Below are positions 18,245-56,035 of a stretch of DNA of 64,000 bases, piece by piece. Source of the stretch: an uncultured bacterium (GTDB lineage Bacteria; Desulfobacterota; Deferrimicrobia; Deferrimicrobiales; Deferrimicrobiaceae); NCBI GenBank assembly GCA_963764045.1, contig CAVXQW010000007.1, forward strand, positions 67,595 through 131,594. The letters run 5' to 3'. Numbering within the stretch: position 1 is the stretch's first letter; each line of letters opens with the position of its first letter. The notes beneath the pieces are model-generated. The model was not told where the DNA came from. It saw only the letters and a list, made by a program, of their open reading frames with translations, and ran no database searches. The position numbers and the translations under genes were made by a program.

Positions 18245-18488
18245 GAGGGAGTCCCGGCGGCGCCCTCGCGCTTTTCCGGCAGAGAAATCAACTCTTGAGG
18301 ATGATGTCCGAAAACAACTGGGAAGTAATCGCTGGGCACGTTCGCTGGACGCAGCCGGGAAGTCGCGCGGTCGGATGCGAGCGGGGAGCCCCGCTGCGGA
18401 GAAGCGGTAACCTGGCGAACCGTTAACTGGGGCTTGGCGTCGTAGGGTATACTTCCCGGAAAGGGCCGATACGAGAGGGGGGGACTCC

Positions 18489-22013: not shown

Positions 22014-22035
22014 GGCGGTGAGAGGGGTGGAGCGG

Positions 22036-23643
22036 ATGGCGGAGGAGTCCGGGAGCGGGAGAGGGTACCTCGCGGAGCGCGGGTGGCGCTCGTGGGCGTA
22101 CACGATGGACCACAAGCGGATCGGCGTGATGTACCTCTACACCACGATCGTCTTCTTCTTCATCGGCGGCATCTTCGCGCTGCTGCTTCGACTGGAGCTG
22201 CTCTCCCCCCAGGCGAAATACTTCAGCGACCACACCTACAACGTCTTCTTCACCCTGCACGGGGCGATGATGATCTTCCTCTTCATCATCCCCGCCATCC
22301 CGTCGGGTCTCGGGAATTTCTTCATCCCGATGCACATCGGCGCGAGGGACGTCGCGTTTCCACGGATCAACCTCGCCAGTTACTGGGTCTTCGTGGCGGG
22401 TTTTCTCGTCGTCATCGGCTCCCTCGTGTCCCCGATGGACACCGGGTGGACCTTCTACACGCCGTACTCGGCGAAAACGGGGGCGGCGGTGGCCACCCTT
22501 TCCTTCGGGATCTTCCTGATCGGGATGTCGTCCATCCTCACCGGACTGAACTTCATCGTCACCATCCACAAGCTGCGCGCCCCCGGGATGACCTGGCACC
22601 GGTTGCCCCTCTTCATCTGGGGGATGTACGCCACCAGCATCATCCAGGTGGTGGCCACGCCGGTGGTCGGGGTGACCTTCCTGCTCCTGGCCATGGAGCG
22701 CCTCTTCGGCGTCGCGTTCTTCGACCCGGCCAAGGGGGGGGACCCGGTCCTGTTCCAGCACTTCTTCTGGTTCTACTCCCACCCGGTGGTGTACGTGATG
22801 ATCCTGCCGGCGATGGGGATCATCTCCGAGGTGATCCCGGTCTTCTCCCGCAAGCCGATCTTCGGGTACAACGCGATCGCCTACTCCTCGCTGGCGATCG
22901 CCTTCCTCGGGTTCCTGGTGTGGGGGCACCACATGTTCACCTCGGGCATGTCCTCCGCTCGCCAACACGATCTTCTCCTTCCTGACCTTCTTCGTCGCCG
23001 TTCCGACGGCGGTGAAGGTGTTCAACTGGATCGCCACGCTCTACAAGGGGTCGATCACCTTCGAGTCGCCGATGCTGTACGCCCTCACCTTCATCTTCCT
23101 GTTCGCCGTCGGGGGCCTCACCGGGCCGTTCCTCGGCGCCCTGGCCACCGACGTGCAACTCCACGACACGTACTTCGTGGTGGCCCACTTCCATTACACG
23201 ATGATGGGCGGCACCGTCATGGGGTTCTTCGCGGGGCTCCACTACTGGTTCCCCAAGATGACCGGAAAGATGCTGAACGAGAAGATCGCGCGGATCGCAT
23301 GGGCGCTGGTCTTCATCGGCTTCAACGTCACCTTCTTCACCATGTTCATCACGGGGTGCGAGGGCATGCCGCGGCGGTACGCGGAATACCTTCCCAGGTT
23401 CCAGGTGGAGAACGTGATCTCGACTCGATCGGTTCCGCGATCCTCGCCGTGGGGATCGCGGTGATGTTCTGGAACTTTCTCCAGGGATTGCGGAAGGGGC
23501 CGCCCGCGCCGGGGAACCCGTGGAGAGCGCTGACCCTGGAGTGGCAGACCCCCTCGCCGCCCATCACCGAGAACTTTCCCGAGATCCCCGTGGTCACCGA
23601 CTGGCCGTACGGGTACGGGAAACCGAAAGGGCCGGTCGCGTGA
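22036..23643 (+). CDS. coxA: cytochrome c oxidase subunit I, two apparent frameshifts
   Basis: ORF 22018..23643 carries both ends. The middle part ([13 protein letters not shown]...HFHYTMMGG...MPRRY) is in ORF 23012..23464. The joins are near 22951..22957 and 23413..23430. Confidence 0.85.
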
Positions 23644-29720: not shown

Positions 29721-29800
29721 CCCCCCTTTCCGGACCCGGGATGTCGTTTCCGGTCCATCGATTATCGTTTCGATCCGTCCCTTTGCTGCTCGTTTTCCCG

Positions 29801-29827
29801 TAAAGTTTTCCCCCTCACTGCCGATAA
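29801..29827 (+). promoter_or_regulatory. sigma-28 (FliA) consensus promoter upstream of the rpfC-like gene
   Basis: TAAAGTTT (29801..29808), 11-nt spacer, GCCGATAA (29820..29827). This is an exact match to the enterobacterial TAAAGTTT-N11-GCCGATAA consensus, 47 nt before the GTG at 29875. Confidence 0.6.
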
Positions 29828-29874
29828 AGATCCCCGACAGCGAAAAACGGGTTGCGTGCGCGCGGGGGCGGGTC

Positions 29875-32452
29875 GTGAACTTCTGGCGGTTGCTGACACA
29901 GGGGCAGTTCCGGCAGGCTTGGGGGACTCTCTCCCGTCGGCCGGACTCGGAGCACGAACAGGCGTTGATCCGCGCGGTCATCACCGCTCTCCTTTTCATT
30001 TACCTGTCCTGGTCGATGTCGAGAGACGGATATCTGGATCCCGGGGAAGTCCTTCTCCTCTGGATTTGCGCACTGTACCATCTCTTCTCCGTCGGACTTT
30101 TCGTGCGGATCACGTTCGCTCCCATCGCGACGTCTCGCTTCCGACGGTACCTGGGGATGGTGGGGGACCTGGTCCTGACGTCCTACGGGATCAGCGTGGC
30201 AGGCGACGTCGCCGGCCCCCTGTACGTCGTCCTCCTCTGGGTGATCTTCGGGAACGGTTTCCGGTACGGCAGGGAATACCTGTTCGCTGCGTCGGCTATC
30301 GGCACGATCTCTTTCGGGTTCGCGATCTATTTCAACGTGTACTGGTTGAACCACACCGTCCTGGCGGTCGGCCTGCAGGTCGGCCTCGTCTTGTTGCCGC
30401 TGTACGTGTCCTCCCTCCTGAAGAAGCTCACGGTCGCCGGGAAGCGCGCCGAGGAGGCCAACCGGGCGAAGAACCGGTTCCTCGCGAACATGAGCCACGA
30501 GATGCGGACCCCGCTCAACGGGATCATCGGGATGCTGGACCTGCTGAAGGGGACGCCGCTATCGACGGAACAGGAGGAACTGACGAAGACGATCGACGAC
30601 TCGGCGCACACCCTCCTGTTCCTGATGCAGGATGTCCTCGACCTCTCGAAGATCGAGGCCGGGAAAGTCTCCGTCGAGGTGTCGGACTTCGACCTGTACG
30701 CGGTTGTGAAGCACACGGTCGCCATCGTCGAGCCCCAGGCGCGGTTCAAGGGGCTCGCCACGTTCCTGCGCGTTCCCTCGAGTGTGCCGTTTCTCCTGCG
30801 CGGGGATCCGCTTCTGCTCCGGCAGGTGCTGTTGAACCTCCTCGGGAACGCCTTGAAGTTCACCGAAAAGGGCGAGGTGGGGGTTCGCGTCGCTCTCGAG
30901 TCGGAGACACATAGGCACGCGACGGTGCGTTTCGAGGTGGTGGATACCGGCATCGGCATCTCCGCCGAGGCGCAGCGGCGGATCTTCGACCGGTTCACCC
31001 AGGCGGACGAGTCGATCACGCGTAGGTTCGGAGGGACAGGGTTAGGGACGACGATTTCGAAGGAGATCGTCGAGATGATGGGCGGGACGATCGGAGTGCA
31101 CAGCGAACCTGGCAAGGGGAGTACCTTCTGGTTCACCGTCGAACTGGTGAAGCAGAGCCGGCAGGAGGATGAGGCTGCGCCCGCGGCGGCGCTCGTGGAC
31201 CGGCGCGCTCTCGTTCTCTCGTCGGAACCCGAAGTGGCCGAGTCCCTCCGGGAGCACCTTTCGGGGTGGGGCATCCACGTCACAACGGTGGACCGGTCCG
31301 CCCAGGCGTTCGCCCGGATCGTCGGTTCTTCCAACGCGGGAACCCCCTTCGACTTCGTTCTCGCCGTCAGCGAGGGATTGGACATGGACGCGGCCGGGTT
31401 CGCCCGCGCCGTCCGGTCCGATTCCACGATCCACGAGAGCCGGCTCATCCTCGTCACCCGCGGGGAAGACGGCGGGGACCCTGCCGTGCTCGACGGCTAC
31501 AGCGCGGCCCTTCCGGTGCCGGTGGACAAAAGGATGCTCTTCAACGCTTTGCATTTTTCGCGCGCCGGGACTCCGGCGGACGATCCCTCGGTGGACAGCC
31601 TCGCCGAGAAGTACCGTCGGAAGAACGTGGGCGGACGGAAGTTGCGCGTCCTGGTGGCGGAAGACAACCGGACGAACCAGATGGTGATCGGGAAGATCCT
31701 CGAGCGGGCAGGGCACGACTTCAAGATCGTGGCGAACGGGGAAGAATTCCTCGATGCCCTGAAGGAGCAGACGTTCGACATCGCGCTCCTCGACCTCCAC
31801 ATGCCGGTGATGGGAGGCATCGAGGCGGCGAAGCTGTCCCGGTTCCTGTCGCCGGGCTCTCCGCGGATGCCGATCGTGGCGCTCACGGCGGACGCGACGC
31901 CGGAGGCGCGGGCGGAGTGCGAGGAGGCGGGGATGGACGCGTGCCTCACCAAGCCCATCGACACGCGGAAACTGTTCGACCTATTCGAAACGATGGTTCC
32001 CGGCGGCGGCGCCGTGCGGACGAGCCCCGGGGAGGGTGCTCCTGGGCGCGGAGGAGACGGCGGCAGCGATGGCCGAGGACCCGGAGGAACCTCCATGTCT
32101 CGACCCTCGGTATCTCCGCGAGCTGTCGGACCTCGGCGGAAACAGCGATTTCGTGGTTCGCCTCGCGTGGACCTTTCTCAAGGGATCGAAGGAGAAGGTC
32201 CGGGGGCTCGAGCGGGCCGTGGCGGATCGCGACCTGGAAAAGGTCCGCGAGTTGGCGCATGCGTTGAAGGGGAACTCGGGGCAGATCGGCGCGCTCGCGT
32301 TGATGCAGGCATGCGAGCGGTTTTCCGGTATCGCCGCAGGGGAGCTGGAACGAAACGGGGAATCCTACCTCGAAGAGGTGAAGGAAGAACTCTCCCGTGC
32401 CAGGACGGCGCTGGACGAGTACCTGGGAACCCGGAATTCCGCGGTTTCCTGA
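29875..32452 (+). CDS. rpfC: RpfC-like hybrid sensor histidine kinase (multi-pass sensor, HisKA, HATPase, degenerate REC-like, REC, Hpt); apparent frameshift before the Hpt domain
   Basis: ORF 29875..32487 carries the H-box MSHEMRTPLNG, GGTGLGTTI and the REC DIALLDLHMPVMGG. The Hpt domain (HALKGNSG) is in ORF 32036..32452, joined somewhere in 31990..32050. The N-terminal strings RPDSEHEQALIR and GPLYVVLLWVIFGNGFRYG resemble Xanthomonas RpfC (from memory). Confidence 0.75.
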
Positions 32453-32456
32453 CCGA

Positions 32457-33376
32457 TCAGGCGTTCCCCGTCCGCGGCGTTGAGTGATCGATGATGGGGT
32501 GAACGACGAGGCCCGTGCTTGGGCGTTCACGAGCCGCTCCATCAGCCGGATTTCCCGCGGACCAAGGCGCATAGCGGTGTCCACCCAGATTTCCTTTACT
32601 TCCATGAGCTCTTCGTAGACGAGCGGCCGGAGCTTCCGGCGGACCTGCATAATCGCCTGCTGGGCGTTTTGCCGGCCTGCCTGCCGGACGATATGCTCGT
32701 ACACCGCATTCTCCCCGCGTCCCTCCTCGGCCAGTATATCGACGACCCCTTCGGCGTGAAGTTCCTCGGCCCGATGAAGCTTCCCGTTCAGGAGCATCCG
32801 TTCCGTCCGCTGCATGCCGATCCGCCGCTGGAGCAGGTTGTACGCCCCCATCCCGGGGAAGAGGTTGAACATGACCTCGGGGAACCCGAACTGGGATTGT
32901 TTCTCCGAGACGAGGATGTCGCTCGCAAGGGCCGCCTCGAATCCACCGCCGAGGGCGTCCCCTTGGACGAGGGAGATGGTGGTGATGGGGAGGTGGAAGC
33001 CTACCGCATGCGCATAGAGCACGTCGATGCAATCCTTCGCGTACCGGCGAAGCGTTTCCGGGTCGTTTTCCTTCAGGCAGCGAATGAAAAGAGCGAGGTC
33101 GCCTCCGAAGTTGAACACCCCGGGAGTCGCGGACGCAAGGATGACGTACCGGACCCCCCACTCCTTCCCCTCGTCCTCCGCCGATCGCTCGATCTTCCCC
33201 TGGAAGCGGCGCAATTCGTCCAGCACCTCGAAATTGAAGCAGGGTCGTGGGTGCGGTGCGAGGTAGCACCAGAGGGCGCCGTACTGCGGCTCGAATCGCG
33301 TGCGGAGATGCCGATAAGAAGTCGGATGGGGAAGGAGAGGTGAAGGCGTTACCTTCATAACGTCCCGTAACTCCAT
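32457..33376 (-). CDS. rpfF: RpfF-like DSF synthase (crotonase superfamily); 3-prime end uncertain
   Basis: Within ORF 31946..33658, starting at MELRDVMKV (33376). VFNFGGDLALF, GGGFEAALA, FPEVMFNLFPGMGAY, EIWVDTAM and MERLVNAQ are present. The in-frame ORF runs on antisense to the Hpt domain. An alternative frame stops at 32457, which I take as the likely true end. Confidence 0.75.
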
Positions 33377-33416
33377 TGTCCCCGCCGGTAATTTTATTTG
33401 GACTGCAGCGTAACGG

Positions 33417-33444
33417 ATAATAGCACGCGATTCCTGTAAAGCAA
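33417..33444 (-). promoter_or_regulatory. candidate sigma-70 promoter for the rpfF-like gene
   Basis: On the minus strand: TTGCTT (33444..33439), 16-nt spacer, TATTAT (33422..33417). Lies ~40 nt upstream of the ATG, in an AT-rich island. Confidence 0.35.
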
Positions 33445-33469
33445 ATAAAACAAATTCTTTTTTCCAATA

Positions 33470-33489
33470 AATGGAAATGTTTTTCCATT
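33470..33489. promoter_or_regulatory. perfect 8-bp-arm palindrome AATGGAAA-tgtt-TTTCCATT in the divergent control region
   Basis: Read directly from the sequence. A third related half-site, TTTCCAAT, lies at 33461..33468. Sits between the rpfF-like and thioesterase genes. Confidence 0.5.
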
Positions 33490-33596
33490 CCCTTGGCTTT
33501 CCCTCTTCGCCCCATTGTAACGGCGTGGCGGAAAGGCTATCTTTCCACGATGCGAAATCGCCGCCGTCCGCGCGATAAACCGCCGAAGGAGGCCTC

Positions 33597-34016
33597 ATGA
33601 AAGAGACACTGAAGGTCGGGCTGGAACATGTGCACACGTATCGCATTCCGGAAAACAAGACGGTTCCACACCTTTATCCCGAGGCGAAAGCGTTCCAGGA
33701 GATGCCGAAAGTGTTCGCCACCGGCTACATGGTCGGGCTCATGGAGTGGGCGTGCATCGAGGCGATGGCGCCGCACATGGAGGCGGGGGAGGGGAGCGTC
33801 GGGACGCTCGTCAACGTGACGCACACCGCGGCGACCCCGCCCGGGATGACCGTTACGGTCCGCGTCCGGTGCATCGGGGTTGAGGGGCGGCGGTCGGTGT
33901 GGGAGGTCGAGGCGAAGGACGATGTCGAACTCATCGGCAAGGGGACCCACGAGCGATTCGCCGTCGACTTCGCGAAATTCAACGCCCGCGTGGCGAAGAA
34001 GGCCGCGGGGGCGTAG
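33597..34016 (+). CDS. hotdog-fold thioesterase family protein
   Basis: 139-aa ORF with a GGAGG 5 nt upstream. VFATGYMVGLMEWACIEA and GTLVNVTHTAATPPG resemble the FlK/thioesterase superfamily (from memory). Confidence 0.7.
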   Translation: MKETLKVGLEHVHTYRIPENKTVPHLYPEAKAFQEMPKVFATGYMVGLMEWACIEAMAPHMEAGEGSVGTLVNVTHTAATPPGMTVTVRVRCIGVEGRRSVWEVEAKDDVELIGKGTHERFAVDFAKFNARVAKKAAGA

Positions 34017-41064: not shown

Positions 41065-41838
41065 CTACCGGAAGTGACGGTTGATCTTCCCCTTCAGCCT
41101 CAAGACCGCCTGCGCGTGAAGCTGGCAGACGCGGGGCTCGCCCAGCCCGAAGATCCGGCTGATCTCGCGCAGGGTCAGATCCTCCTGGTAGTAGAACGCG
41201 ATCAGCTGACGCTCGCGCTCGGGGAGCATGTCGATCGCCTTCCCGAGGACGTCCTTCAGTTCCCGGGTGAGCTCCTCTTCCCGGCTTTCATCCATCGCCG
41301 CCTCGGCCAGAACGTGCCGCCACCCCGCGCCGGATTCCTCGTCCTCGTTCTGGAGCGCGTCGAGGGAGAACACCGTCATCCCCATGAATGTCGCCAGCTG
41401 TTTGCGGAGCTCGTCGACGGTCACCCCCAGGTTCTGCGCGACCTCCTCTTCCTCGGGGGCCCTTCCGAGGATGTTTTCGAGCCGGGTGTAGGTCTGCTGC
41501 AGCCGGGTCGAGTGCTGCCGCGCCGACCGCGGGAACCAGTCCATCTCGCGCAGGTAGTCGAGCATGGCTCCCCGGATCCGGAACTCGGCGTACGTCTTGA
41601 ACTTGATCCCGCGGGAGTCGTCGTACCGGTTCAGCGCGTCCAGCAGTCCCACGACGCCGGAGCTGACGAGATCGTCGGTCTCGATGTGGGGAGGGATGCG
41701 CAGCTTCAGGCGCGCGGCGTGAATGCGGATGCTCGGAAGGAACTCGTTGACGATCGCGTCCCGGTCGGGTTTGCGGGATTTCCGGGGGGATGCCTTTCGG
41801 GTCCTGTCCTTGGAAAGCGCTGCCTGTCCCTGCATCAT
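41065..41838 (-). CDS. fliA: flagellar/alternative sigma factor sigma-28 (FliA/WhiG family)
   Basis: Intact 257-aa ORF. Region 2 (FKTYAEFRIRGAMLDYLR) and the region 4.2 HTH (LTLREISRIFGLGEPRVCQLHAQAV) are present. Confidence 0.9.
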   Translation of the reverse strand: MMQGQAALSKDRTRKASPRKSRKPDRDAIVNEFLPSIRIHAARLKLRIPPHIETDDLVSSGVVGLLDALNRYDDSRGIKFKTYAEFRIRGAMLDYLREMDWFPRSARQHSTRLQQTYTRLENILGRAPEEEEVAQNLGVTVDELRKQLATFMGMTVFSLDALQNEDEESGAGWRHVLAEAAMDESREEELTRELKDVLGKAIDMLPERERQLIAFYYQEDLTLREISRIFGLGEPRVCQLHAQAVLRLKGKINRHFR

Positions 41839-41894: not shown

Positions 41895-41910
41895 AGCAAA
41901 CGGCGTGCCA
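41895..41910 (-). promoter_or_regulatory. sigma-54 promoter upstream of fliA
   Basis: The minus strand reads TGGCAC-GCCGT-TTGCT, an exact fit to TGGCAC-N5-TTGCW. It lies ~57 nt upstream of the fliA ATG, with an AT-rich tract (41915..41960) further upstream. Confidence 0.7.
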
Positions 41911-42003: not shown

Positions 42004-42023
42004 ACCGTCAATATTTTGACGGT
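42004..42023 (-). terminator. stem-loop at the stop codon of the hybrid kinase gene, followed by a second GC hairpin
   Basis: ACCGTCAA-tatt-TTGACGGT palindrome. The second hairpin, CGGGG-N10-CCCCG, lies at 41981..42000. There is no clean U-tract. Confidence 0.3.
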
Positions 42024-43342
42024 CTTGCGTCGAGAACGGATCGCACTTTTCGGGCCAGCGTCTCCCGTTCATACGGCTTCTGCAGGAAATCGTCGAATCC
42101 GTCCGGAACGGCGCAGGAGGGTGTTCCTCCGGCTTCGGAGGTCCCGGAGCAGAGGATCGTCCGGAGGGTCGGACGGATGGCGCGAAGCTGCGCGATGGTT
42201 TCGATGCCGTCCATCCCGGCCATGATCCGATCGACGATCACCAGGTCCACCTTTTCCGGCGCGTAGCGAAGGATCTCGATCCCCTCCTCGCCGGAGTCCG
42301 CGGGCAGGGTCGTGTATCCCAGCGATCGGAGCACGTCGCACAGGAGGTTCAGGGGGATCTCCTCGTCGTCGACGACGAGCACGGTCTCGGTTCCCCGCGG
42401 GATCTCCGTCTCGGCCTCGCGGTTCGTCGGCATCCCCCGATTCTTCCATGACCGGGAGGAGGATCTGGAACGTCGTGCCCACGCCGACGCTGCTCACGAG
42501 GCGCACGAACCCGCCGTGGGTGCGGACGCAGCTGTACACCATCGAGAGGCCGAGTCCCGTCCCCTCGCCCGGCGCCTTGGTCGTGAAGAAGGGTGCGAAG
42601 ACCTCGTCGCGAATCTCCTCCGGGATGCCGCTTCCCGTGTCGGCCACGCAGATGGAGACGTACCGCCCCTCGGGAACGAGGACGTCGTTCAGGTAAACCT
42701 CCCCGTCGGAAACGAAGGGGGAGGTGGAGAACGTCAGGTGCCCTCCGCCGGGCATCGCGTCGGCGGCGTTGACCCCCAGGTTCAGCAGCGCCTGCACGAG
42801 CGTCCCCGCGTCTCCCGTCACGGGTTCCTGCGGGTGATGGAAATCGGTGTGGATCTCGACGTTCTTGTTCACGGAGCGGGCAAGGATCTCGATCGCCTCC
42901 CCGGTCACCTTCCGGAGATCCACCGGACGGAACCTCGGGGTCTCCCGCCGGGAATAGGCGAGCAGCTGCCGGGTCAGCTCGGAGGCGCGGCGTGCGGACC
43001 GTTCGATGTAGGCGGCCGCCTCGTACCCCCGGCCGTTTTCGGGAAGGAACGTCTTGAGGAGGGAAGAGTAGCCGAGAATCCCGGTCAGGAGGTTGTTGAA
43101 GTCGTGGGCGATCCCGCCGGTCAGCCGCCCGATCGCCTCCATCTTCTGCGCCTGCGCGAGCTGCTCCTCGGCCTGGCGGAGGCGGGTCGAAAGCGCTTCG
43201 ATCCGATCGTCCCCTCCGTGGCTCCGTCGCGCTCCGCCGCGTCGAGGCACGCTTCCAGCCGGCGGAGGATCTCCTCCCGCTGTTCCGCGGAAAGGCCGAT
43301 CCCGTCAACGACATCCGCGATTCGGGATCGGAGCGAGGTCAA
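42008..43342 (-). CDS. hybrid histidine kinase/receiver without obvious sensor domain; two apparent frameshifts
   Basis: The TTG at 43342 overlaps the upstream stop. A coiled-coil N-terminus (ORF 43121..43606 frame) joins at the CCCC run 43211..43214 to the kinase core (GIAHDFNNLL, GTGLGLS; ORF 42069..43250). A second join near 42425 leads to the REC domain (ORF 42008..42433, VLVVDDEE, VDRIMAGMDG). Confidence 0.75.
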
Positions 43343-44736
43343 CTCACCGGACCGGGGGCATCGCCGGCATCGAGGCTCTTCCGCTTCAGCATCTCCACGA
43401 AGGTCGTCCGCTTCAGGCCCAGCAGGGTGGCCGCGCGGTTCTTGTTCCCGCCCGAAAGATGCAGCGCCTGGCGGATGAGGGCGTTCTCGAAGTCCTCGGT
43501 GGCGCTCTTGATGTCGAGGCCCGTATCCCCCAGCACGGGGATGGCGTTCTCGAGGAACCGCTCCGCCCGCCGGATCTTTTCCGGGATGTCCGACGGCTCG
43601 AGCCATCCGGAACCTTTGAGGACGACGATCCGCTCGACGAGGTTCTCCAGCTCCCGGACGTTCCCCGGCCAGGTGTAGCGCCGCAGGATCTCGAGGGATT
43701 CGGGCCGCACCCCTTCCAGCGCCCGCTTCTTCTCCCGGTTGTACTTCCCGACGAAGTGTTCGACCAGCAGGGGGATGTCGTCACGCCGGTCCCGGAGCGG
43801 AGGAATCCGGATGGGGATCACGTTCAGGCGGAAGTAGAGATCGGAGCGGAACCTCCCCTCGGAGATCTCCTCCTCGAGATCCTTGTTGGTCGCCGTGATG
43901 ACGCGCGCGTCCACCGGGATCGCCCGGTTTCCGCCGACGGGGGTGACCGACTTCTCCTGCAGCACCCGGAGCAGCTTCGACTGCAGCGGGGGACTCATCT
44001 CCGCGATCTCGTCGAGGAAGATCGTGCCGTTGTGGGCCGCCTCGAATTTTCCCGCCCGCGCGGCGTGGGCTCCCGTGAACGCGCCCTTCACGTGCCCGAA
44101 GAGCTCGCTCTCAAGCAGTTCGGCGGGGATGGCGGAGCAGTTGATGGGGACGAGCATGCGCTCGGAGCGCGGGGAAAGGTAGTGAAGGGCCCGCGCGATG
44201 AGCTCCTTCCCCGTCCCGCTCTCCCCGGTGATCAGGACCGTGGAGTCGGTGTCGGCCACCTTCCGGACGAGGGAGAGGACCTCCTTCGTCGCCTCGCTCA
44301 CGCCGATGAAGTTTTCCAGCCCCCCCCGCCCCCGGGCGAGGGAACGGAGACTCACGTTTTCCCTGCGCACGCTGGCGAGCTCGAGGGCCCGGTCCACGAG
44401 CTGGGCGACCTCGTCGATGTCGAACGGTTTGGTGATGTAGTGGAACGCGCCAAGCTTCATCGCACGAACGGCGGATTCGACCGATGCGTGCCCCGTCATG
44501 AGGATCACCTCGGCCCCGGGGCGGACCTTCCGGGCGTGGGCGAGCACCGAGAGCCCGTCCGTTCCCGGCATCTTGAGGTCGGTGAGGATCACGTCGACGG
44601 GGTGCTGATCGATGTGCTGAAGGGCTTCCTCCCCGGTGCGGGCCTCGTGGACCAGGAGGTCGGAGCGCCCGAACACGTTTCGAAGGAGGGCGAGCGTGAC
44701 TTCCTCGTCCTCGGCGATCAGGAGGGATTTTTTCAT
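43339..44736 (-). CDS. sigma-54-dependent response regulator (NtrC/FleR/FlrC family)
   Basis: ORF 43339..45087, starting at MKKSLLIAEDEE (44736). REC (DVILTDLKMPG), AAA+ (GESGTGKE, ESELFGHVKGAFTGA) and a C-terminal HTH (NKNRAATLLGLKRTTF) are present. Confidence 0.9.
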   Translation of the reverse strand: MKKSLLIAEDEEVTLALLRNVFGRSDLLVHEARTGEEALQHIDQHPVDVILTDLKMPGTDGLSVLAHARKVRPGAEVILMTGHASVESAVRAMKLGAFHYITKPFDIDEVAQLVDRALELASVRRENVSLRSLARGRGGLENFIGVSEATKEVLSLVRKVADTDSTVLITGESGTGKELIARALHYLSPRSERMLVPINCSAIPAELLESELFGHVKGAFTGAHAARAGKFEAAHNGTIFLDEIAEMSPPLQSKLLRVLQEKSVTPVGGNRAIPVDARVITATNKDLEEEISEGRFRSDLYFRLNVIPIRIPPLRDRRDDIPLLVEHFVGKYNREKKRALEGVRPESLEILRRYTWPGNVRELENLVERIVVLKGSGWLEPSDIPEKIRRAERFLENAIPVLGDTGLDIKSATEDFENALIRQALHLSGGNKNRAATLLGLKRTTFVEMLKRKSLDAGDAPGPVS

Positions 44737-44743
44737 CGGGTCC

Positions 44744-44772
44744 AGTGTACAGAATCGTCCCTCCCGGGTAAA
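44744..44772 (-). promoter_or_regulatory. candidate sigma-70 promoter placing the start site at or next to the ATG of the NtrC-like gene
   Basis: On the minus strand: TTTACC (44772..44767), 17 nt, TACACT (44749..44744), then 7 nt to the ATG at 44736. No Shine-Dalgarno sequence. The -35 element overlaps the flgM sigma-28 -35 on the other strand. Confidence 0.3.
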
Positions 44773-44796
44773 GTTTCCGATCCCGCCCGTCGATAA
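44769..44796 (+). promoter_or_regulatory. sigma-28 (FliA)-type promoter upstream of the flgM-like gene
   Basis: TAAAGTTT (44769..44776), 12-nt spacer, GTCGATAA (44789..44796). This differs from TAAAGTTT-N11-GCCGATAA by one mismatch and one extra spacer nucleotide. Confidence 0.55.
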
Positions 44797-44842: not shown

Positions 44843-45046
44843 TTGAAGGTTTCCGATCGGGGGAAGTGGGGCGCGCTGCTCGACGAGACGCGCCGGGCGG
44901 TCGACGTGCTGTCCGAGGGCCGTGCGCGACGGATCGAGGAGATCCGGTCGGCCCTCCGGGACGGAACGTTCCGGGTCGACGGGAAACAGGTCGCCGGGAA
45001 GATGGTCTCCGACGCCGTCCGGGAACTCCGCGAACGCCCCCACTGA
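44843..45046 (+). CDS. flgM: anti-sigma-28 factor FlgM-like protein (start uncertain)
   Basis: In the frame of ORF 44636..45046. The C-terminal RIEEIRSALRDGTFRVDGKQVAGKMV matches the FlgM signature region. A TTG at 44843 follows GGAGGGG; a GTG at 44804 is an alternative start. Confidence 0.55.
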   Translation: MKVSDRGKWGALLDETRRAVDVLSEGRARRIEEIRSALRDGTFRVDGKQVAGKMVSDAVRELRERPH

Positions 45047-45107: not shown

Positions 45108-45732
45108 ATGCGTTTGCGCATCGACGGCTGCGAAGTTTCCCTGGACCTGCCCGCGGGATCGACCTTCGGCGCCGTTCTCGAGGGGGCGGGGCGCAAGGTC
45201 GCCTCGCAGGGTCGGGTCGTCTCCCGGATCGTCACGGACGGGCGGGAGATCTCGACGCGGTTCGAGCGGGAGATGGCCGACCGGCCGGTCGGGGAGATCG
45301 ACACGGTGGAGATCACGACGACGACCCCCGACGTCCTGTTCCGGGAGGCGCTCGACGGCGCCGTCGACCTCTCCCTCGCCATCCGCCGCGACGCGGAGAC
45401 GATCCTGTCGTCCCTGCGCGCGGGGGACCTCGCGGCGGCGGGTCCCCGATACGCGGCCTGCATCGAGTCCCTCGGGACGTTCTTCCAGCTGGCCGGGGCG
45501 GTCTTCAACGCCATCGGGACCGGCGTGTTTCCGCTCGCCGTTCCGTCCGGGAGTCGCGGGGGAGCTTCCGACCCCTCCCTACGCGACGGCCGGCATCCTC
45601 CAACGGCTTCTCCGGGCGCAGAAGGCGAACGACTGGAACGCCGTGGCGGACATTCTGGAGCGGGAGATCCTGCCCAACATCGACGGGTGGTCCGTCTTTT
45701 TCAAGGCGCTCAAGGAGATCGGCGCGGAATAG
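45108..45732 (+). CDS. hypothetical protein downstream of flgM; apparent frameshift
   Basis: MRLRIDGCEVSLDLPAG... (ORF 44922..45764) joins near 45520..45560 to ...ILQRLLRAQKANDWNAVADILEREILPNIDGW...IGAE (ORF 44815..45732). No domain recognised. Confidence 0.45.
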
Positions 45733-47267: not shown

Positions 47268-48314
47268 CTACCGGATCGCCTTCAGCGCGTCGAGGAGCGC
47301 CCCGACCTCGTCGTCCGTCCCGACGGTGATGCGGAGGCACTCCGCGAGCCGCGGGGTGTCGAAGTACCGCACGAGGATCTTCCGGCGCTTGAGCGCCTCG
47401 TAGACCGGCCGGGCCGATCCTCCACGCGTGCGCCGGGCGAGGATGAAATTGCTCTGCGACGGGAACGGCGTGAATCCCGCGCCGGGAAGGCCCGCCGCCA
47501 GGGTCTCGCGGGTTTTCCGGATCCTCGCCCCGTTCCGTTCCATCCACGCGGTGTCCGAGAGCGCTGCGACCCCCGCCGCGATCGACAGGCGGTTCATGTT
47601 GTACGAGTCGCGCACCTTGTCCAGCCCTTCGATGATCCGCGGGTGGGCGAACCCGAGCCCGATCCGCATCCCCGCAAGGGAGAACGACTTGGAGAGCGTC
47701 CGCAGGACGATCACGTTCCGCCGTTCCCGCGCGAGCGCGAGGGCCGTTTCGTCCGCGAAGTCGGCGTACGCCTCGTCGATGACCAGCAGGCCGGGGACGG
47801 CATCGGCGAGCTCCGCGAGGGCGCGGACCGGCACGGCGGTACCCGACGGCGAATTCGGGTTCGCGACGATCGTCACGCGCGCCTTTTTCCCGGCAAGTCC
47901 TCGGGGGAGGGAGTAGTCGTCCGGGTACGGGATCCCCGCGAGCTTTCCCCCCTGGATGCGGACGAGGGTGTCGTAGAGCGTGTAGGTGGGCACGGGGCAC
48001 GCGAGGAGATCCCCCTCGCCCACGAATGCCCTCGCGATCATCGCCAGCAGGTCGTCCGATCCGTTCCCCGCGATCACACCGGGCAGGTCGAAGCCGTACG
48101 TCAGCGCGGCCTGGCGTCGCAGCGCGGTGGATCCGGGGTCGGGATAGAGGCGCAGCGGCTCCCCGAGTTCCCGGAGGATCGCCTTGCGCACCTTCGGGGA
48201 AGGGGGGTACGGGTTCTCGTTGGTGTTCAGCTTGATGAAGTCGCGCTCCCGGGGCTGCTCGCCGGGGACGTACCCCTCCATGCGGGAGACATTTCGCCGG
48301 AAGACGACCGTCAT
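47268..48314 (-). CDS. hisC: histidinol-phosphate aminotransferase
   Basis: C-terminal 348 aa of ORF 47268..49073, starting at MTVVFRRNV. NTNENPYPPSP and the PLP lysine motif LSKSFSLAGMRIG are present. Confidence 0.9.
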   Translation of the reverse strand: MTVVFRRNVSRMEGYVPGEQPRERDFIKLNTNENPYPPSPKVRKAILRELGEPLRLYPDPGSTALRRQAALTYGFDLPGVIAGNGSDDLLAMIARAFVGEGDLLACPVPTYTLYDTLVRIQGGKLAGIPYPDDYSLPRGLAGKKARVTIVANPNSPSGTAVPVRALAELADAVPGLLVIDEAYADFADETALALARERRNVIVLRTLSKSFSLAGMRIGLGFAHPRIIEGLDKVRDSYNMNRLSIAAGVAALSDTAWMERNGARIRKTRETLAAGLPGAGFTPFPSQSNFILARRTRGGSARPVYEALKRRKILVRYFDTPRLAECLRITVGTDDEVGALLDALKAIR

Positions 48315-49512
48315 CGTTGGGTCCCTCCGCCGGAATAGCCGCGTCCGAGCCGCTCCCACGCGGGGACCGAGCGCCTCACCGTTTCCGGGGGGAGGCAGTA
48401 GGCGATGCGGACATGGCCGCTTCGCCCGAACCCGGACCCCGGGACGACGAGGATCCCCTCGTCGCGCGCCGCGGCAACGAACGCCATCTCGTCCGGGACG
48501 GGGGACTTCGGGAACAGGTAGAACGCTCCGCCGGGAGGGACGACGTCGATCCCGGCGCGCCGCAACGCGTCGAGCAGAACGTCCCGGTTCTCCTGGTACA
48601 CCGAGACGTCGGCGGGCTCGTCCTCGAACTTCGACGCGGCAAGCTGGAAGAGGGCCGGGGCGTTGACGAACCCGAGCACCCGGTTGCAGAAGACGCACGC
48701 CTCCGCCACCTCGGCCGCGTCCGCCGAGCGCGGGGAGACGGCGAGGTACCCGATCCGCTCGCCCGGAAGGTTCAGGTCCTTCGAGTGCGAATAGGCCACC
48801 AGGGTGTTGCGGATTTTCGCGGCGGCCGGCGTGGACGACACTCCCCGGAAAACGATCTTCCGGTACGGCTCGTCGGAGATCACGTAGATCGGGTTCCCGA
48901 ATCGCTTCTCCGCGGCGGATCAGTACCCGGTCGAGGGCGGCGAGGTCTCCTTCGGGGTAGACGGCGCCCGTCGGGTTGTTCGGCGTGTTGATGAGGATCG
49001 CACGCGTCTTCGGGGTGAGGGCCGCTTCTACGGCCGCCAGATCGAGCTGGAACCGCGCGTCCGTTTCCGCCACGACCGGCGTCCCCGCAGGCGTTGCGGA
49101 TGTAGAAGAGGTACTCCACGAAGTAGGGGGCGAGGATCACCACCTCGTCTCCCGGCGAGAGGATGGCGCGCAGCGCGACGTTCAGCGCTCCCGCGGCGCC
49201 AACGGTCATCACCAGCAGTTCCTCCGTGAACGGCAGGCCCGTGGAACGGGAGAGCGACAGCGCCGCGGCCCGCCGGGCCTCCGGCGCCCCGGCGTTCGGC
49301 ATGTACCGGTGCAGTCCGGGCGGCGGGTCGGCGCACAGGCGCGCCAGTTCGGCGGAAAGCGCGGGCGGCGGGTCGCCGTACGGGTTCCCGAGGGTGAAGT
49401 CGAACACGTTTTCCTCGCCGCGCTCGGCCTTGAGGATCGCTCCGTCCTCGAACATCTTCCGGATCCACGAACCTCGACGGATCGCCTCCCGGATCTCCGG
49501 CGATGCGGGCAT
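48311..49512 (-). CDS. class I/II (aspartate/alanine-type) aminotransferase; two apparent frameshifts
   Basis: Three pieces: MPASPEIREAIRRGS... (ORF 48880..50361), ETDARFQLDL...NTPNNPTGAVY (ORF 47268..49073) and ISDEPYRKIVF...YSHSKDLNLPGERIGY (ORF 48311..48883). The stop overlaps the hisC ATG. Confidence 0.8.
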
Positions 49513-49681
49513 CTTCTCCTCCCTGGGGCGGCATCTACGATGATAACGAATCACGATACGCCACTTTCCGCCGGTGCCGCAAGGGGGCGATGGTACCGGT
49601 TGAATCGACCCGCGGCATGCCGTAAAGTGGTCGAAACGACCCGCTCCGCGAAGGGATTCCGCGGCTGTTTCCAAGGAGGAC

Positions 49682-50302
49682 ATGGTGAAAGCACTTTCCG
49701 AACGCTCCTGCTGTTCGTTTGTCCGTGCCTGATTCTTTCCGCCTGCGCCACCGGGGGTTCGCTGTACGTTCCCGGGGCCCTGACCCGTCCCGCGCGCGCC
49801 GCCGCGCCCGCCGCCGGGCAGCCGCAGGCCGTGATCGCGGACTTCTCGTTCGCGGCGGCCCCCGACGGCGTCATCGGGCGGGATTTCGACTCCGTTCGAC
49901 CGATCGTCTGGAAAGGCGAGCCCGGGAAGGCGATGGCGGACCTGGTCGCCAGGGTCCTCGGGGAACGCGGCGTCGCGACGGTCCGCCGGGGCGCGAACCG
50001 CGCAGGGCGCCGAGGTGCTTCCGGTACGGATCTCCGGGGTGGTCCGCCGGTTCGAGGTGAACACCCGCCGCACCGGCAACCTGACCGTGGTCACGGAGGC
50101 GACCGTGAGCCTGACCATCACGGCGGAGGGTTCCGGCGTTTCCGGGCGCATGGAGGAGACGATCACGAGCAGCGCGTCGCTCTCGGACGTCTTCGTCACG
50201 CCCGACGATCTTCGCGAGGCGCTGTTGTCCACGGCCAACACCGTCGCGGAGGAGGCCGCCCGAAAATTGATGGAGGCCAAGGTCGTCTCTCCGTCGCCGT
50301 GA
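49682..50302 (+). CDS. putative lipoprotein, two compensating apparent frameshifts
   Basis: The ATG at 49682 (after AGGAGGA) gives MVKAL. A shift follows to RTLLLFVCPCLILSAC (lipobox, ORF 48976 frame), then back near 50000 to ORF 50015..50302. Confidence 0.45.
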
Positions 50303-51291
50303 GCATCACCATCTCCCACGACCTTGCGGACGTCCCGGTCGCGGGGTGGGAAGAACTCCACGGACGGGGACCGCGCACCTCCCCGTTCCTCTCACCCCGG
50401 TTCCTCCTCCCCTGGCATCGCGCCCTCGGCCGGGGGTGCGACGTCCGGGTCGCCCGCTGGACTCCGGGCGGCGACGGCCCCGACGAGGGGCTCCTCTTCC
50501 TGTGCCGCCGCGGGGAGGGAGGATGGGGATTCCTCGGCAGCGAGCAGGTCGCGGACTACCTCGATGCCCTCGTCGCTCCCGGTTCCGCGGAAGCCTTCTG
50601 GCGGGAGTTTCTCGAACGGGGTCTCCCCGCCCTGGGCGGCGGTCCTCTGAGGCTCCCGGGTCTCGTGGAAGGGACGCCCGCCCTGTCGCTCCTCCCGTCG
50701 ATCTGCCGGGAGACCGGTCTTTCCTGCTCCGTCGAGGAGATGGACCGGGCTCCTTTCGTCTCCCTGCCGGGCTCCTTCGAGGAATATCTCGAACGGCTGG
50801 GCACGAAGGAGCGTCACGAATTGCGGCGGAAGATGCGGCGCGCCGGAGAGCTCCTGCCGGGGCTCTCCTTCCGGGTGACCCGGACGCAAGACGAACTTGC
50901 GAACGACCTTCCATCCTTCGTGGAACTCCTCCGGAAGAGCCACCCCGCGAAGGAAGCGTTCATGGACGAGGCGATGGCGACCTTTTTCCGCGAGGTCGCG
51001 GAGGGGTTCCTCGCCTCCGGCCGCCTGCGTCTCGCATTCCTCTCCACGCACGAGGTGGACGTCGCCTCCGTGTTCCAGTTCCAAACCGACGGCGCACTGC
51101 TCCTCTACAACTCCGGGTACGATCCGGCGCACCGCGCGGCCAACCCCGGGCTCGTCCTCATCGCGCGCTCCATCGGGCAGGCCGTCGACGAAGGGTGCGC
51201 GGAGTACGACTTTCTCCGGGGAACGGAACGGTACAAGTACGACCTCGGAGGGGTGGACCGGGTGGTCTATCGCCTGACGGTTTCCGCTTGA
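50299..51291 (+). CDS. GNAT-fold acetyltransferase (Acetyltransf_6 / CelD-BcsL-like)
   Basis: In the frame of ORF 48976..51291. The GTG at 50299 overlaps the upstream stop. The C-terminal NSGYDPAHRAANPGLVL...EYDFLRGTERYKYDLGG is typical of this family (from memory). Confidence 0.7.
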   Translation: MSITISHDLADVPVAGWEELHGRGPRTSPFLSPRFLLPWHRALGRGCDVRVARWTPGGDGPDEGLLFLCRRGEGGWGFLGSEQVADYLDALVAPGSAEAFWREFLERGLPALGGGPLRLPGLVEGTPALSLLPSICRETGLSCSVEEMDRAPFVSLPGSFEEYLERLGTKERHELRRKMRRAGELLPGLSFRVTRTQDELANDLPSFVELLRKSHPAKEAFMDEAMATFFREVAEGFLASGRLRLAFLSTHEVDVASVFQFQTDGALLLYNSGYDPAHRAANPGLVLIARSIGQAVDEGCAEYDFLRGTERYKYDLGGVDRVVYRLTVSA

Positions 51292-56019: not shown

Positions 56020-56035
56020 TGGTACGGCCGTTGCT
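56020..56035 (+). promoter_or_regulatory. sigma-54 promoter upstream of glnB-glnA
   Basis: TGGTAC-GGCCG-TTGCT fits TGGYAC-N5-TTGCW, with GG and GC 12 nt apart. It ends 29 nt before the glnB ATG. Confidence 0.7.

Follow-up and report, generated by a model that had tools for sequence, protein, structure and literature searches.

An RpfC-type hybrid sensor kinase gene, encoded in a 64-kb stretch of DNA (hereafter the window) from an uncultured bacterium of the Deferrimicrobiota (MBNT15), is preceded at 29801..29827 by what is, judged from its motif and its conservation, a bona fide sigma-28-type promoter. The window also encodes a stand-alone sigma-28 factor, FliA, whose gene carries a sigma-54 promoter, and the anti-sigma factor FlgM, whose gene carries a second sigma-28 promoter (Table 1); the motifs, their conservation, the identities of the genes and the pairing of the promoters are direct observations. 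We hold it likely that the promoter before the kinase is functional and that production of the RpfC-type receptor is gated by a sigma-54 to sigma-28/FlgM cascade. The initial annotation had placed this receptor of DSF-family signals in the late flagellar regulon, a claim of which one part stands and the other does not: the sigma-28 promoter is genuine, in about 80 loci, and the link to flagella and motility is doubtful. A meaning of the promoter in terms of late flagellar regulation or motility is unproven and possibly wrong.

Table 1. Features of the window that bear on expression of the RpfC-type kinase
Feature	Position	Strand	Description and basis
Weak terminator-like hairpin	29728..29741	+	Follows ClpA/B-like gene (stop 29720); sets upstream transcription unit apart
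T-rich block TTTTCCC	29793..29799	+	Directly 5' of kinase -35; conserved
Sigma-28 (FliA-type) promoter	29801..29827	+	-35 TAAAGTTT (29801-29808), 11-nt spacer tccccctcact, -10 GCCGATAA (29820-29827)
Predicted transcription start and leader of ~40 nt	29834..29874	+	Start ~29834-29836; G-rich RBS GGGGG (29864-29868)
rpfC-like hybrid sensor kinase	29875..32452	+	5-TM input, HisKA, HATPase_c, degenerate receiver-like linker, REC, HPt (Pfam)
rpfF-like crotonase, DSF-synthase family	32507..33376	-	Convergent with kinase; ATG 33376 or 33358
fliA, stand-alone FliA/WhiG-family sigma-28 gene	41065..41838	-	TIGR02479, synteny, paralogue comparison
Sigma-54 promoter TGGCACgccgtTTGCT	41895..41910	-	56 nt upstream of fliA ATG; preceded by AT-rich tract
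Hybrid kinase HisKA-HATPase_c-REC	42008..43250	-	Upstream of fliA; Pfam; two ORFs, frameshift near 42433
NtrC-type sigma-54 enhancer-binding response regulator REC-AAA-HTH_8	43339..44736	-	Pfam, NCBIfam
Second sigma-28 promoter TAAAGTTT-N12-GTCGATAA	44769..44796	+	46 nt before flgM TTG 44843
flgM, short anti-sigma-28 factor, 67 aa	44843..45046	+	TTG start after GGAGG RBS
DUF8042-like gene	45108..45729	+	Downstream of flgM; tblastn with DUF8042 of L161 and L168; frameshift near 45540

A conserved sigma-28 promoter precedes the kinase gene

The site upstream of the kinase had been read as a perfect plus-strand sigma-28 consensus, and so it is: with a -35 element of TAAA(GTTT) and a -10 element of GCCGATAA set 11-12 nt apart as the criterion, all 16 of 16 positions match around an N11 spacer, and both boxes lie where they had been placed. 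The distance of 47 nt from the -10 element to the GTG at 29875 likewise agrees, and orthologous kinases begin at the matching M/V-[KN]-F-W position. Sigma-28 geometry, in which transcription usually begins 7-8 nt past the -10 element, would put the start at the position given in Table 1. The leader has no Rfam match, although parts of it are moderately conserved among close relatives, and no sigma-70-like promoter was found near the kinase start (29400-30000). In DNA of 66% GC, chance would produce the exact 16-mer about 1.7e-6 times in 64 kb and about 1.6e-4 times in a 3-Mb genome, and about 0.06 matches with at most three mismatches are expected in a 64-kb window. A relaxed scan of the whole window recovered the two sigma-28 sites of Table 1 and a weak match at 18288..18314, which is probably spurious.

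Orthologous kinase genes were retrieved with a sensor-domain alignment searched against metagenome contigs, an approach far better than a whole-kinase query, which matched mostly unrelated hybrid kinases through generic kinase-core peptides and yielded only two orthologous loci (L001, L002). The motif stands upstream of 79 of 81 such genes in Deferrimicrobiota-like metagenomes, and at no more than two mismatches it is present in 60 of the 81 upstream regions (74%) versus 1 of 4142 control windows (0.02%); because many of the 81 loci are closely related, these counts are not all independent, and the loci comprise 69 unique sequences. Across those 69 the CCGA of the -10 element is invariant and the AA and TTT positions of the -35 element are at least 93% conserved, whereas spacer and flanks carry little information and vary among orthologues. 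Spacers are of 11 or 12 nt, the -10 element reads GCCGAAAA, TCCGATAA or GCCGATAA, and the distance from motif to start codon is constant in close relatives, at 43-55 nt. The motif is kept where a PfkB gene replaces ClpA/B upstream and also at loci without shared synteny, and it is missing exactly where the kinase gene stands second, after rpfG, in an rpfG-rpfC operon (L158, L160). The sigma-28 wiring is kept throughout an entire uncultured phylum, which marks it as the product of evolution and not of accident.

GC-rich genomes often have AT-rich islands between their genes, and the motif might on that account be taken for a coincidental match or for a relic without function. With some 2e-6 exact matches expected per window, an enrichment over control windows of the size just given, an invariant core beside a variable spacer, and retention of the motif in differing neighbourhoods, the probability of that reading is negligible, and the footprinting effectively refutes it. 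A different question is posed by the T-rich block that adjoins the -35 element, whose positions -27 to -23, counted from the -10 element, show 74-86% conservation among the 69 unique sequences. The block is peculiar to the kinase promoter, flgM promoters being without it, and is possibly an UP-like element or a site for a second regulator. The extra conserved TTTTCC of this block and the partial conservation of the leader would also suit a bipartite element read by something other than sigma-28, be it a regulator that binds DNA, a leader element acting as RNA, or a further alternative sigma factor. We consider this very improbable, as the conserved positions correspond base for base to the sigma-28 consensus at spacings of 11 or 12 nt only, the same bipartite motif precedes flgM, a classical sigma-28 target, the leader lacks an Rfam match, and no sigma factor gene other than fliA was found in the window.

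The kinase and its convergent crotonase

The kinase had been described as rpfC-like, an identity borne out by its sensor motif, its membrane segments, its HisKA-HATPase-REC-HPt architecture and its RpfF-family neighbour. RpfC senses DSF through a short N-terminal sensor adjoining the first transmembrane segment, in which Arg15, Asp17, Ser18, Glu19 and Gln22 are essential (PMC5391125). The kinase presents R22-P-D24-S25-E26-H-E-Q29, an R-x-DSE-xx-Q motif of identical spacing, and in the sensor alignment of the kinase family R22, D24, E26 and Q29 are invariant and S25 is conserved in at least 90%. Five hydrophobic segments (residues 30-48, 60-78, 106-124, 135-153 and about 158-180) emerge from a Kyte-Doolittle scan, which is not a topology predictor, and the best PDB match of the receiver taken alone is the RpfC REC domain. 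Because neither NCBIfam nor Pfam holds a model of the RpfC input domain, membership in the RpfC type was judged by motif and context; a protein search with the sensor alone brought up mostly fragments labelled "RpfC" by automatic annotation, with no named Xanthomonas RpfC among the matches. The reading frame is not intact in the window: one extra base near 32040 puts the HPt domain (32036..32452) in the +1 frame, and intact orthologues run to about 857 aa and include the HPt domain (PF01627). The frameshift marks either a defective copy or an indel error of the assembly, and two further genes of the window, the hybrid kinase near fliA and the DUF8042-like gene, are frameshifted as well.

Convergent with the kinase, here and at almost every locus with downstream sequence, lies a crotonase gene (Pfam ECH_1; 67% identical to an ECH_1 gene of L161 by tblastn), whose reading frame in the window lacks a stop codon where one is expected and continues to 31946. 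The best PDB match of its product is the RpfF of X. campestris (3m6m, E=1.6e-55, residues 24-290), with generic hydratases at about 1e-14, and its GGGFEAAL and FPEV segments align with RpfF such that both catalytic Glu motifs (GGGFE and xPE) are kept. The crotonase passes NF006452 (352 bits, cutoff 177) and falls below the cutoff of the NCBIfam RpfF equivalog NF053515 (221.5 bits, cutoff 550). The convergent pair is maintained over sensor identities from 44% to 91%. It is accompanied by a true rpfG in L158 and L160, the only loci with an HD-GYP (RpfG) gene, neither the window nor any sigma-28-type locus having one. No sigma-28 motif precedes the rpfF-like gene, the best match having five mismatches, and inspection by eye of its upstream region finds TTGCTT-N16-TATTAT, which has a sigma-70-like look. 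An alternative convergent reading frame, 32457..33515 on the minus strand, was discarded as a shadow frame with a G/R/P-rich translation and no family matches. Synthase and sensor domain form co-varying allele classes.

The sensor motif, the five membrane segments and the convergent RpfF-family synthase support assignment of the kinase as an RpfC-type sensor of DSF-family signals. It could instead be an RpfC look-alike that answers to another membrane or lipid cue from an equally real promoter, next to a crotonase that is a metabolic enzyme. The nonexistence of a curated RpfC model would leave room for this, as would the crotonase score under the equivalog cutoff, an rpfG that is not adjacent, a relative's sensor domain that comes near a PilS-like 6TM model (26.0 bits, cutoff 27), and an extra degenerate receiver-like segment foreign to the described domain order of RpfC. 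We nevertheless judge a look-alike unlikely, given that all five DSF-sensing residues of RpfC are present in a five-segment input domain, with the same spacing and with the family-wide conservation noted above, that kinase and crotonase stay paired over a wide range of sensor divergence, with true rpfG in two loci, and that the crotonase, with both catalytic Glu motifs, is 40 orders of magnitude nearer to RpfF than to generic hydratases.

A proposed sigma-54 to sigma-28/FlgM cascade

The minus-strand gene that had been annotated as fliA encodes a protein above the cutoffs of both TIGR02479 (250 bits, cutoff 190) and NF005413 (231 bits, cutoff 201). The canonical fliA genes of relatives lie in flhBAFG-fliA operons, and their products are at most 62-67% identical to the FliA of the window. 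Some relatives, L163 among them, have two sigma-28 paralogues, either of which may read the promoter there, and it is the second, non-operonic one of L163 that is the counterpart of the window FliA, both by position and as the closest sequence. The sigma-54 site upstream of fliA (TGGCAC-N5-TTGCW) is the sole match without mismatch in the window; the promoter recurs at every stand-alone fliA locus, with zero or one mismatch in L161, L162, L167, L168 and L169 and before the second fliA of L163, and with two mismatches in L171. It is missing from in-operon fliA genes, and the background is 5 of 3946 windows at no more than one mismatch. The hybrid kinase gene upstream of fliA, split in the window, has a single 525-aa orthologue in L161 that is 76% and 68% identical to the two pieces, and it is 54-57% identical to the kinases that follow canonical fliA in flagellar clusters. 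The NtrC-type regulator (Sigma54_activat, 236 bits), whose gene is found next to fliA also in L161, L167 and L168, is the probable activator of the fliA sigma-54 promoter.

A second sigma-28 promoter had been reported before an flgM-like gene; it is present as TAAAGTTT-N12-GTCGATAA and is conserved in L161, L167 and L168. FlgM itself exceeds the Pfam cutoff (36 bits, cutoff 25) and falls short of that of NCBIfam TIGR03824 (34.6 bits, cutoff 40.75), and its orthologues, of 73-75 aa, are called FlgM. The DUF8042-like gene that follows is probably co-transcribed with flgM, and flgM(-DUF8042) and the rpfC-like gene are the known conserved outputs of the cascade.

We infer which proteins act on which sites, and likewise the ligand of the kinase. 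The sigma-28 promoter at 29801..29827 would transcribe the kinase gene as a single-gene unit, and the kinase would be a membrane sensor that detects a signal of the DSF family (a cis-2-unsaturated fatty acid); the gene of the matching RpfF-family synthase, convergent with the kinase gene, has no sigma-28 motif. The sigma factor that reads the kinase promoter would be the product of the stand-alone fliA, encoded 9 kb away; this fliA would in turn depend on its sigma-54 promoter, presumably activated by the NtrC-type regulator and hybrid kinase encoded beside it. Sigma-28 would also transcribe flgM, its own anti-sigma factor, and so set up a negative feedback. Given wiring of the promoter, fliA and flgM in this way, the cascade would gate the abundance of the receptor, and hence the competence of the cell to sense the signal, in place of the classical rpfG-rpfC operon arrangement.

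Is the cascade flagellar?

Sigma-54 followed by sigma-28 is the standard hierarchy of polar flagellates. The order of the cascade agrees with it, FliA and FlgM are a canonical pair, relatives whose FliA is at most 62-67% identical own full flhBAFG-fliA clusters, and the hybrid kinase beside fliA has its relatives in such clusters. The organism might accordingly be flagellated, with FliA an ordinary late-flagellar sigma factor that is freed when FlgM is exported through the hook-basal body; the receptor would then belong to class III/IV, and only motile cells would sense the signal. Several observations weigh against this reading, which we regard as possible but somewhat improbable. Flagellar structural and chemotaxis genes are missing from the 64-kb window, as they are from the 10 kb on either side of fliA in five related contigs (L161, L167, L168, L169, L171). 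The window FliA matches the non-operonic sigma-28 of L163 in position and sequence, and its FlgM is just 67 aa long. The type species, Ca. Deferrimicrobium borealis, the sole described genome of the genus, is reported to be without flagellar and chemotaxis genes (PMC9386147). In the flagellated relatives L163 and L165 no sigma-28 sites were found, the loci containing early flagellar genes only, which makes this result neutral on the question.

The link to motility state that had been predicted for the receptor is thus not upheld, since fliA is stand-alone behind a sigma-54 promoter, flagellar genes are not nearby and the type genome is reported as aflagellate. Because fliA looks detached from flagellar clusters, the receptor may be tied to the sigma-54/sigma-28 cascade itself and not to swimming, and we lean slightly towards a cascade decoupled from flagellar assembly. 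More tentative, and on balance doubtful, is the further idea that in aflagellate Deferrimicrobiota the cascade outlived the flagella and was repurposed as a dedicated switch for the DSF receptor, with input domain and synthase co-diversifying as pherotypes in near-identical backgrounds. The suggestion that FliA-dependent rpfC is new holds for the literature searched, in which no report of it was found.

DSF signalling acts on motility via RpfG, c-di-GMP, Clp and FleQ. A sigma-28 promoter before the DSF receptor would reverse this usual link, an alternative sigma cascade deciding whether the cell hears the signal, and the uncultured phylum throughout which this wiring occurs is abundant in sediments, peat and wetlands. 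Were the lineage truly aflagellate, it would be a clear case of a FliA/FlgM module that has left the flagellum behind and taken on another role, and would offer a very small, tractable sigma-28 regulon. The co-varying classes of synthase and sensor, if functional, would be the first pherotype-like diversification in fatty-acid signalling.

Comparison with known systems

The closest parallel for the receptor is the rpf cluster of Xanthomonas campestris, in which rpfF is convergent with the rpfGHC operon and RpfC, RpfG and RpfF carry out DSF signalling. Shared with it are the five-segment input domain with R-x-DSE-xx-Q, the HisKA-HATPase-REC-HPt order and a convergent crotonase of the RpfF family that keeps both catalytic Glu residues. 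Unlike that cluster, the present locus has no rpfG or rpfH, belongs to a different phylum, and carries its kinase gene as a monocistronic unit behind a sigma-28 promoter and not distally in an rpfG operon; the kinase also has about 160 extra residues, the degenerate receiver-like segment, between HATPase and REC. The relatives L158 and L160 retain the classical rpfG-rpfC layout without the sigma-28 promoter. PA1396 of Pseudomonas aeruginosa is a sensor with an RpfC-type input domain and no cognate rpfG operon (PMC6536496). Like it, the present kinase joins an RpfC-related five-segment input to a hybrid kinase apart from rpfG, and the literature searched contained no report of sigma-28 control over PA1396. 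P. aeruginosa is not known to make DSF itself, nor PA1396 to have an RpfF-type synthase next to it; the kinase described here has a conserved convergent one.

With respect to the promoter, the class 3 promoters of E. coli and Salmonella (fliC, flgMN, tar; TAAAGTTT-N11-GCCGATAA) have the same -35, -10 and spacing, and flgM is likewise among their targets, so that FliA and FlgM form the same feedback loop. Here a quorum-sensing receptor takes the place of a flagellar or chemotaxis gene as target, fliA stands alone under sigma-54 control with no flagellar genes nearby, and FlgM has only 67 aa. In the flagellar hierarchies of Vibrio, Pseudomonas, Campylobacter and Geobacter an NtrC-type enhancer-binding protein and sigma-54 lead to fliA, and FliA to the late genes and flgM, an order shared by the scheme proposed here; in the window and its close relatives, by contrast, flagellar structural genes do not accompany the cascade. 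FliA/WhiG-family sigma factors of aflagellates, namely Chlamydia sigma-28 and Streptomyces WhiG, govern small non-flagellar developmental regulons from promoters whose consensus is near the enteric one. The present system differs from these in that its target is a receptor for cell-cell signals, its anti-sigma factor is a FlgM homologue and the aflagellate status of its host is conjectural. The allele classes, finally, recall the pherotypes of staphylococcal agr and Bacillus comQXP. Those systems use peptide signals, whereas the sequences here come from metagenomes of several species and define putative specificity groups; as in agr and comQXP, the synthesis gene and the sensor input diverge jointly into discrete classes while the kinase core and the flanking genes stay conserved.

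A conserved, predicted sigma-28-type promoter precedes the rpfC-like gene

The initial annotation had placed a perfect sigma-28 (FliA) promoter before the gene of an rpfC-like hybrid sensor kinase, and this motif is read directly in the window. The kinase reading frame, which shows strong third-position GC bias over its long course, opens with a GTG codon 47 nt downstream of the predicted promoter, a start supported by orthologues that open at the same residue (M/V-[KN]-F-W). The window has a GC content of 66%; dinucleotide shuffles of it give ~0.06 expected matches at three or fewer mismatches, and the exact 16-mer is expected ~1.7e-6 times per window, or ~1.6e-4 times per 3-Mb genome. Neither a sigma-70-like promoter nor an Rfam element was found in the kinase promoter region, and a weak hairpin lies 3' of the gene upstream of it. 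A conserved TTTTCC(C) block directly 5' of the -35 element, absent at flgM promoters, could serve as an UP-like element or bind a second regulator. A weak sigma-28-like match elsewhere in the window, with three mismatches all in the -35, is probably spurious.

The predicted promoter of the kinase gene is conserved far beyond chance. Kinase orthologues (~857 aa, 76-92% identity) are plentiful in MAGs labelled Deferrimicrobium, Deferrimicrobiaceae or "Deltaproteobacteria". The sample comprised 81 orthologous kinase loci whose upstream DNA could be read: species-representative genomes supplied two (L001, Ca. Deferrimicrobium sp.; L002, Deferrimicrobiaceae), and a metagenome scan with a sensor-domain alignment the other 79, at sensor identities of 44% to 91%; each was scored by its best match to the bipartite consensus within 200 nt before the gene, with 4142 windows of the same loci as controls. 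At most two mismatches were found upstream of 60 of the 81 orthologues (74%) versus one control window (0.02%), and at most four upstream of 76 (94%) versus 0.7% of controls. Among 69 unique promoter sequences anchored on the -10 element, CCGA is invariant and conservation within the -35 is 93% or higher at AA and TTT, while spacer and flanks carry little information and spacer length alternates between 11 and 12 nt only; anchoring by best match somewhat inflates this conservation, and the effect is real because the best match in controls typically has seven mismatches. The distance to the start codon is 43-55 nt in close relatives. The motif is also kept where the upstream neighbour is PfkB rather than a ClpA/B-like gene (L086, L091, L113, L114), in L002 despite a different stop context, and in loci L141-L157 and L159, which lack any shared synteny and carry ADH, MFS, P-type ATPase, radical-SAM and PAS/GAF kinase genes as neighbours.

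Features of the window discussed in the text
Feature	Position	Strand	Remarks
Weak sigma-28-like match	18288..18314	+	TCAACTCT-N11-TCCGAAAA
COX1	22018..23643		fragmented in appearance
TTTTCC(C) block	29793..29799	+
Predicted sigma-28 promoter, kinase gene	29801..29827	+	TAAAGTTT-N11-GCCGATAA; 29800-29829 reads gTAAAGTTTtccccctcactGCCGATAAag
rpfC-like kinase	from 29875	+	GTG start
Sensor input domain	29875..30450	+
Kinase frameshift	~32040		one extra base, before HPt
rpfF-like crotonase	33358..32507	-	ATG at 33376 or 33358
rpfF-like ORF as read	31946..33376	-	no stop at ~32470
FlK-type hotdog thioesterase	33597..34016	+
fliA	41065..41838	-
Predicted sigma-54 promoter, fliA	41910..41895	-	TGGCACgccgtTTGCT
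Hybrid kinase adjoining fliA	42069..43250 and 42008..42433	-	split; frameshift at ~42433
Predicted sigma-28 promoter, flgM	44769..44796		TAAAGTTT-N12-GTCGATAA
flgM	44843..45046	+	TTG start
DUF8042-like gene	~45540		frameshifted
Aminotransferase	47268..50361		fragmented in appearance
Sigma-54-like site	56020..56035	+	TGGTACggccgTTGCT
P-II gene (glnB)	56064

The kinase and its convergent neighbour resemble RpfC and RpfF

The kinase reading frame encodes HisKA, HATPase_c and REC domains, and its translation becomes rich in G, R and P after about residue 715. A canonical HPt domain, HALKGNSGQIGA (PF01627, 42 bits), is found in the +1 frame, and alignment with three orthologues places the one extra base in the variable linker of the kinase. 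No curated family matches residues 1-190, and membership in the RpfC group was therefore judged by published criteria. DSF sensing by RpfC requires Arg15, Asp17, Ser18, Glu19 and Gln22, which lie next to the first TM helix (Cai et al. 2017, PMC5391125); the window kinase has R22-P-D24-S25-E26-H-E-Q29, with the same spacing, and these five positions (R22, D24, S25, E26, Q29) show little or no variation in the family alignment. A hydropathy scan of the input domain resolves five TM segments, a number also found in RpfC and PA1396 (PMC6536496), and the best receiver-only PDB match is the RpfC REC domain (3m6m_D, E=3.5e-26).

By its sequence, the neighbour of the kinase is an RpfF-type synthase. 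The first ORF call for the convergent gene was a shadow frame and was dropped; L161, a related contig, has an ECH_1 gene at that position, and a tblastn search located the window crotonase at 67% identity to it. In the PDB it is closest to X. campestris RpfF (3m6m, E=1.6e-55 over nearly the full length) and to other RpfF/DSF synthases, with generic enoyl-CoA hydratases reaching only ~1e-14, and it retains both catalytic glutamate motifs. It scores above the cutoff of NF006452 (352 bits versus 177) and below that of the strict RpfF equivalog NF053515 (221 versus 550). The rpfF-like ORF has no stop where orthologues end and continues antisense through the kinase 3' end, perhaps as a further indel artefact or as a genuine overlap.

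Locus layouts and sequence divergence

The convergent kinase-crotonase pair is present in almost every sufficiently long locus, down to 44% sensor identity. The two kinase loci that lack the sigma-28 motif, L158 (1..3371) and L160, have the classical rpf cluster layout, in which an RpfG-like REC-HD-GYP gene (PF13487) stops 5 nt before the kinase start and an rpfF-like gene lies convergent downstream. Neither the window nor any sigma-28-type locus contains an HD-GYP gene, so that two architectures emerge: an rpfG-rpfC operon lacking the promoter, and a stand-alone rpfC-like gene with a predicted sigma-28 promoter. In three other loci (L115 4844..5230, L116 6326..6712, L119 4092..4568) a second sensor-domain-like sequence, ~30% identical, follows the kinase closely in the same orientation, and the sequence on hand for each gave no rpfF-like match.

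The FlK-type thioesterase gene, 86-97% conserved, always adjoins the rpfF-like gene and recurs at this position in most loci, with TetR and RND efflux genes next to it downstream; a role in release, turnover or export of a fatty-acid signal is conceivable.

Among loci L001 and L081-L140, in backgrounds that share 90-96% identity with the window over the kinase core, ClpA/B and thioesterase, the input domain of the sensor falls to 55-91% and the RpfF-like synthase to 44-90% identity, and the two co-vary as about four discrete allele classes. In their pattern of sequence divergence these classes resemble pherotype loci, and we know of no description of such polymorphism for DSF systems.

A proposed sigma-54 to sigma-28 tier

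A FliA gene and a second sigma-28 motif, before flgM, had also been claimed; both hold, the former exceeding the curated FliA/WhiG models (TIGR02479, 250 bits versus a cutoff of 190). The flgM start codon follows a GGAGG ribosome-binding site and lies 46 nt 3' of the predicted promoter, which is kept in related contigs L161, L167 and L168; a DUF8042-like gene follows directly. At only 67 aa, against 73-75 aa in relatives, FlgM spans little beyond its sigma-28-binding C-terminal region; this would be consistent with an anti-sigma factor not exported via a flagellar apparatus.

FliA itself is preceded, 56 nt from its ATG and behind an AT-rich tract, by a perfect sigma-54 site. Further upstream, in the same orientation, come genes for a hybrid kinase, which is a single 525-aa protein in L161 and frameshifted in the window, and for an NtrC-type enhancer-binding response regulator. 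FliA homologues occur in two types of gene context. Stand-alone copies (L161, L162, L167, L168, L169, L171 and the second copy of L163; 64-80% identical to window FliA) have a sigma-54 promoter match 49-62 nt upstream with zero to two mismatches, whereas those in a canonical fliMNOPQR-flhBAFG-fliA operon (L165, L170 and the first copy of L163; at most 62%) have none; as background, 5 of 3946 windows match at one mismatch or fewer. Both types occur in L163, 5 kb apart, and window FliA corresponds to the stand-alone copy there in gene order (FliA, then RND efflux and TetR genes) as well as in identity (67% versus 60%). A sigma-54-like site with one mismatch also lies just upstream of the P-II and glutamine synthetase genes, a classical nitrogen-regulated arrangement, which argues that the sigma-54 consensus is in use in this organism.

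Compared with intact orthologues, three window genes carry frameshifts, and others appear fragmented, which suggests assembly indel errors more than pseudogenes.

Of the initial proposal that the kinase belongs to a late flagellar regulon, the sigma-28 wiring is well supported; the flagellar part finds no counterpart in the 64-kb window, where no flagellar or chemotaxis gene was found, nor was any within 10 kb of fliA in L161, L167, L168, L169 and L171. In the near-complete Ca. Deferrimicrobium borealis genome, flagellar and chemotaxis genes are reported to be missing and type IV pili to be present (Begmatov et al. 2022, PMC9386147). Against this, flagellation is clear in more distant relatives, and the hybrid kinase beside window fliA is 54-57% identical to kinases in their flagellar clusters. 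We lean slightly towards an "orphan" sigma-54 to sigma-28/FlgM module decoupled from flagellar assembly and motility.

Proposed cascade and comparison with known systems

The analysis shows the motifs, how well they are conserved and the families to which the proteins belong; from these we infer a cascade in which every pairing of a protein with DNA or with another protein, the start of transcription and the ligand are proposals. Some input would reach the NtrC-type regulator by way of the hybrid kinase and so activate fliA from its sigma-54 promoter; sigma-28 would then transcribe the rpfC-like gene and also flgM(-DUF8042), the latter closing a negative feedback loop. For the RpfF-like synthase gene, which carries no sigma-28 motif, expression is probably independent of sigma-28, so that the signal would be made broadly and sensed only with the cascade on.

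In the literature we found no description of FliA with RpfC, of a FliA-regulon histidine kinase or of a FliA-dependent quorum-sensing sensor. The host lineage is a poorly known candidate phylum. To our knowledge the combination was not previously known, and its parts, namely a sigma-28 promoter, an RpfC/RpfF pair and a sigma-54 to sigma-28 hierarchy, are all of known kinds.
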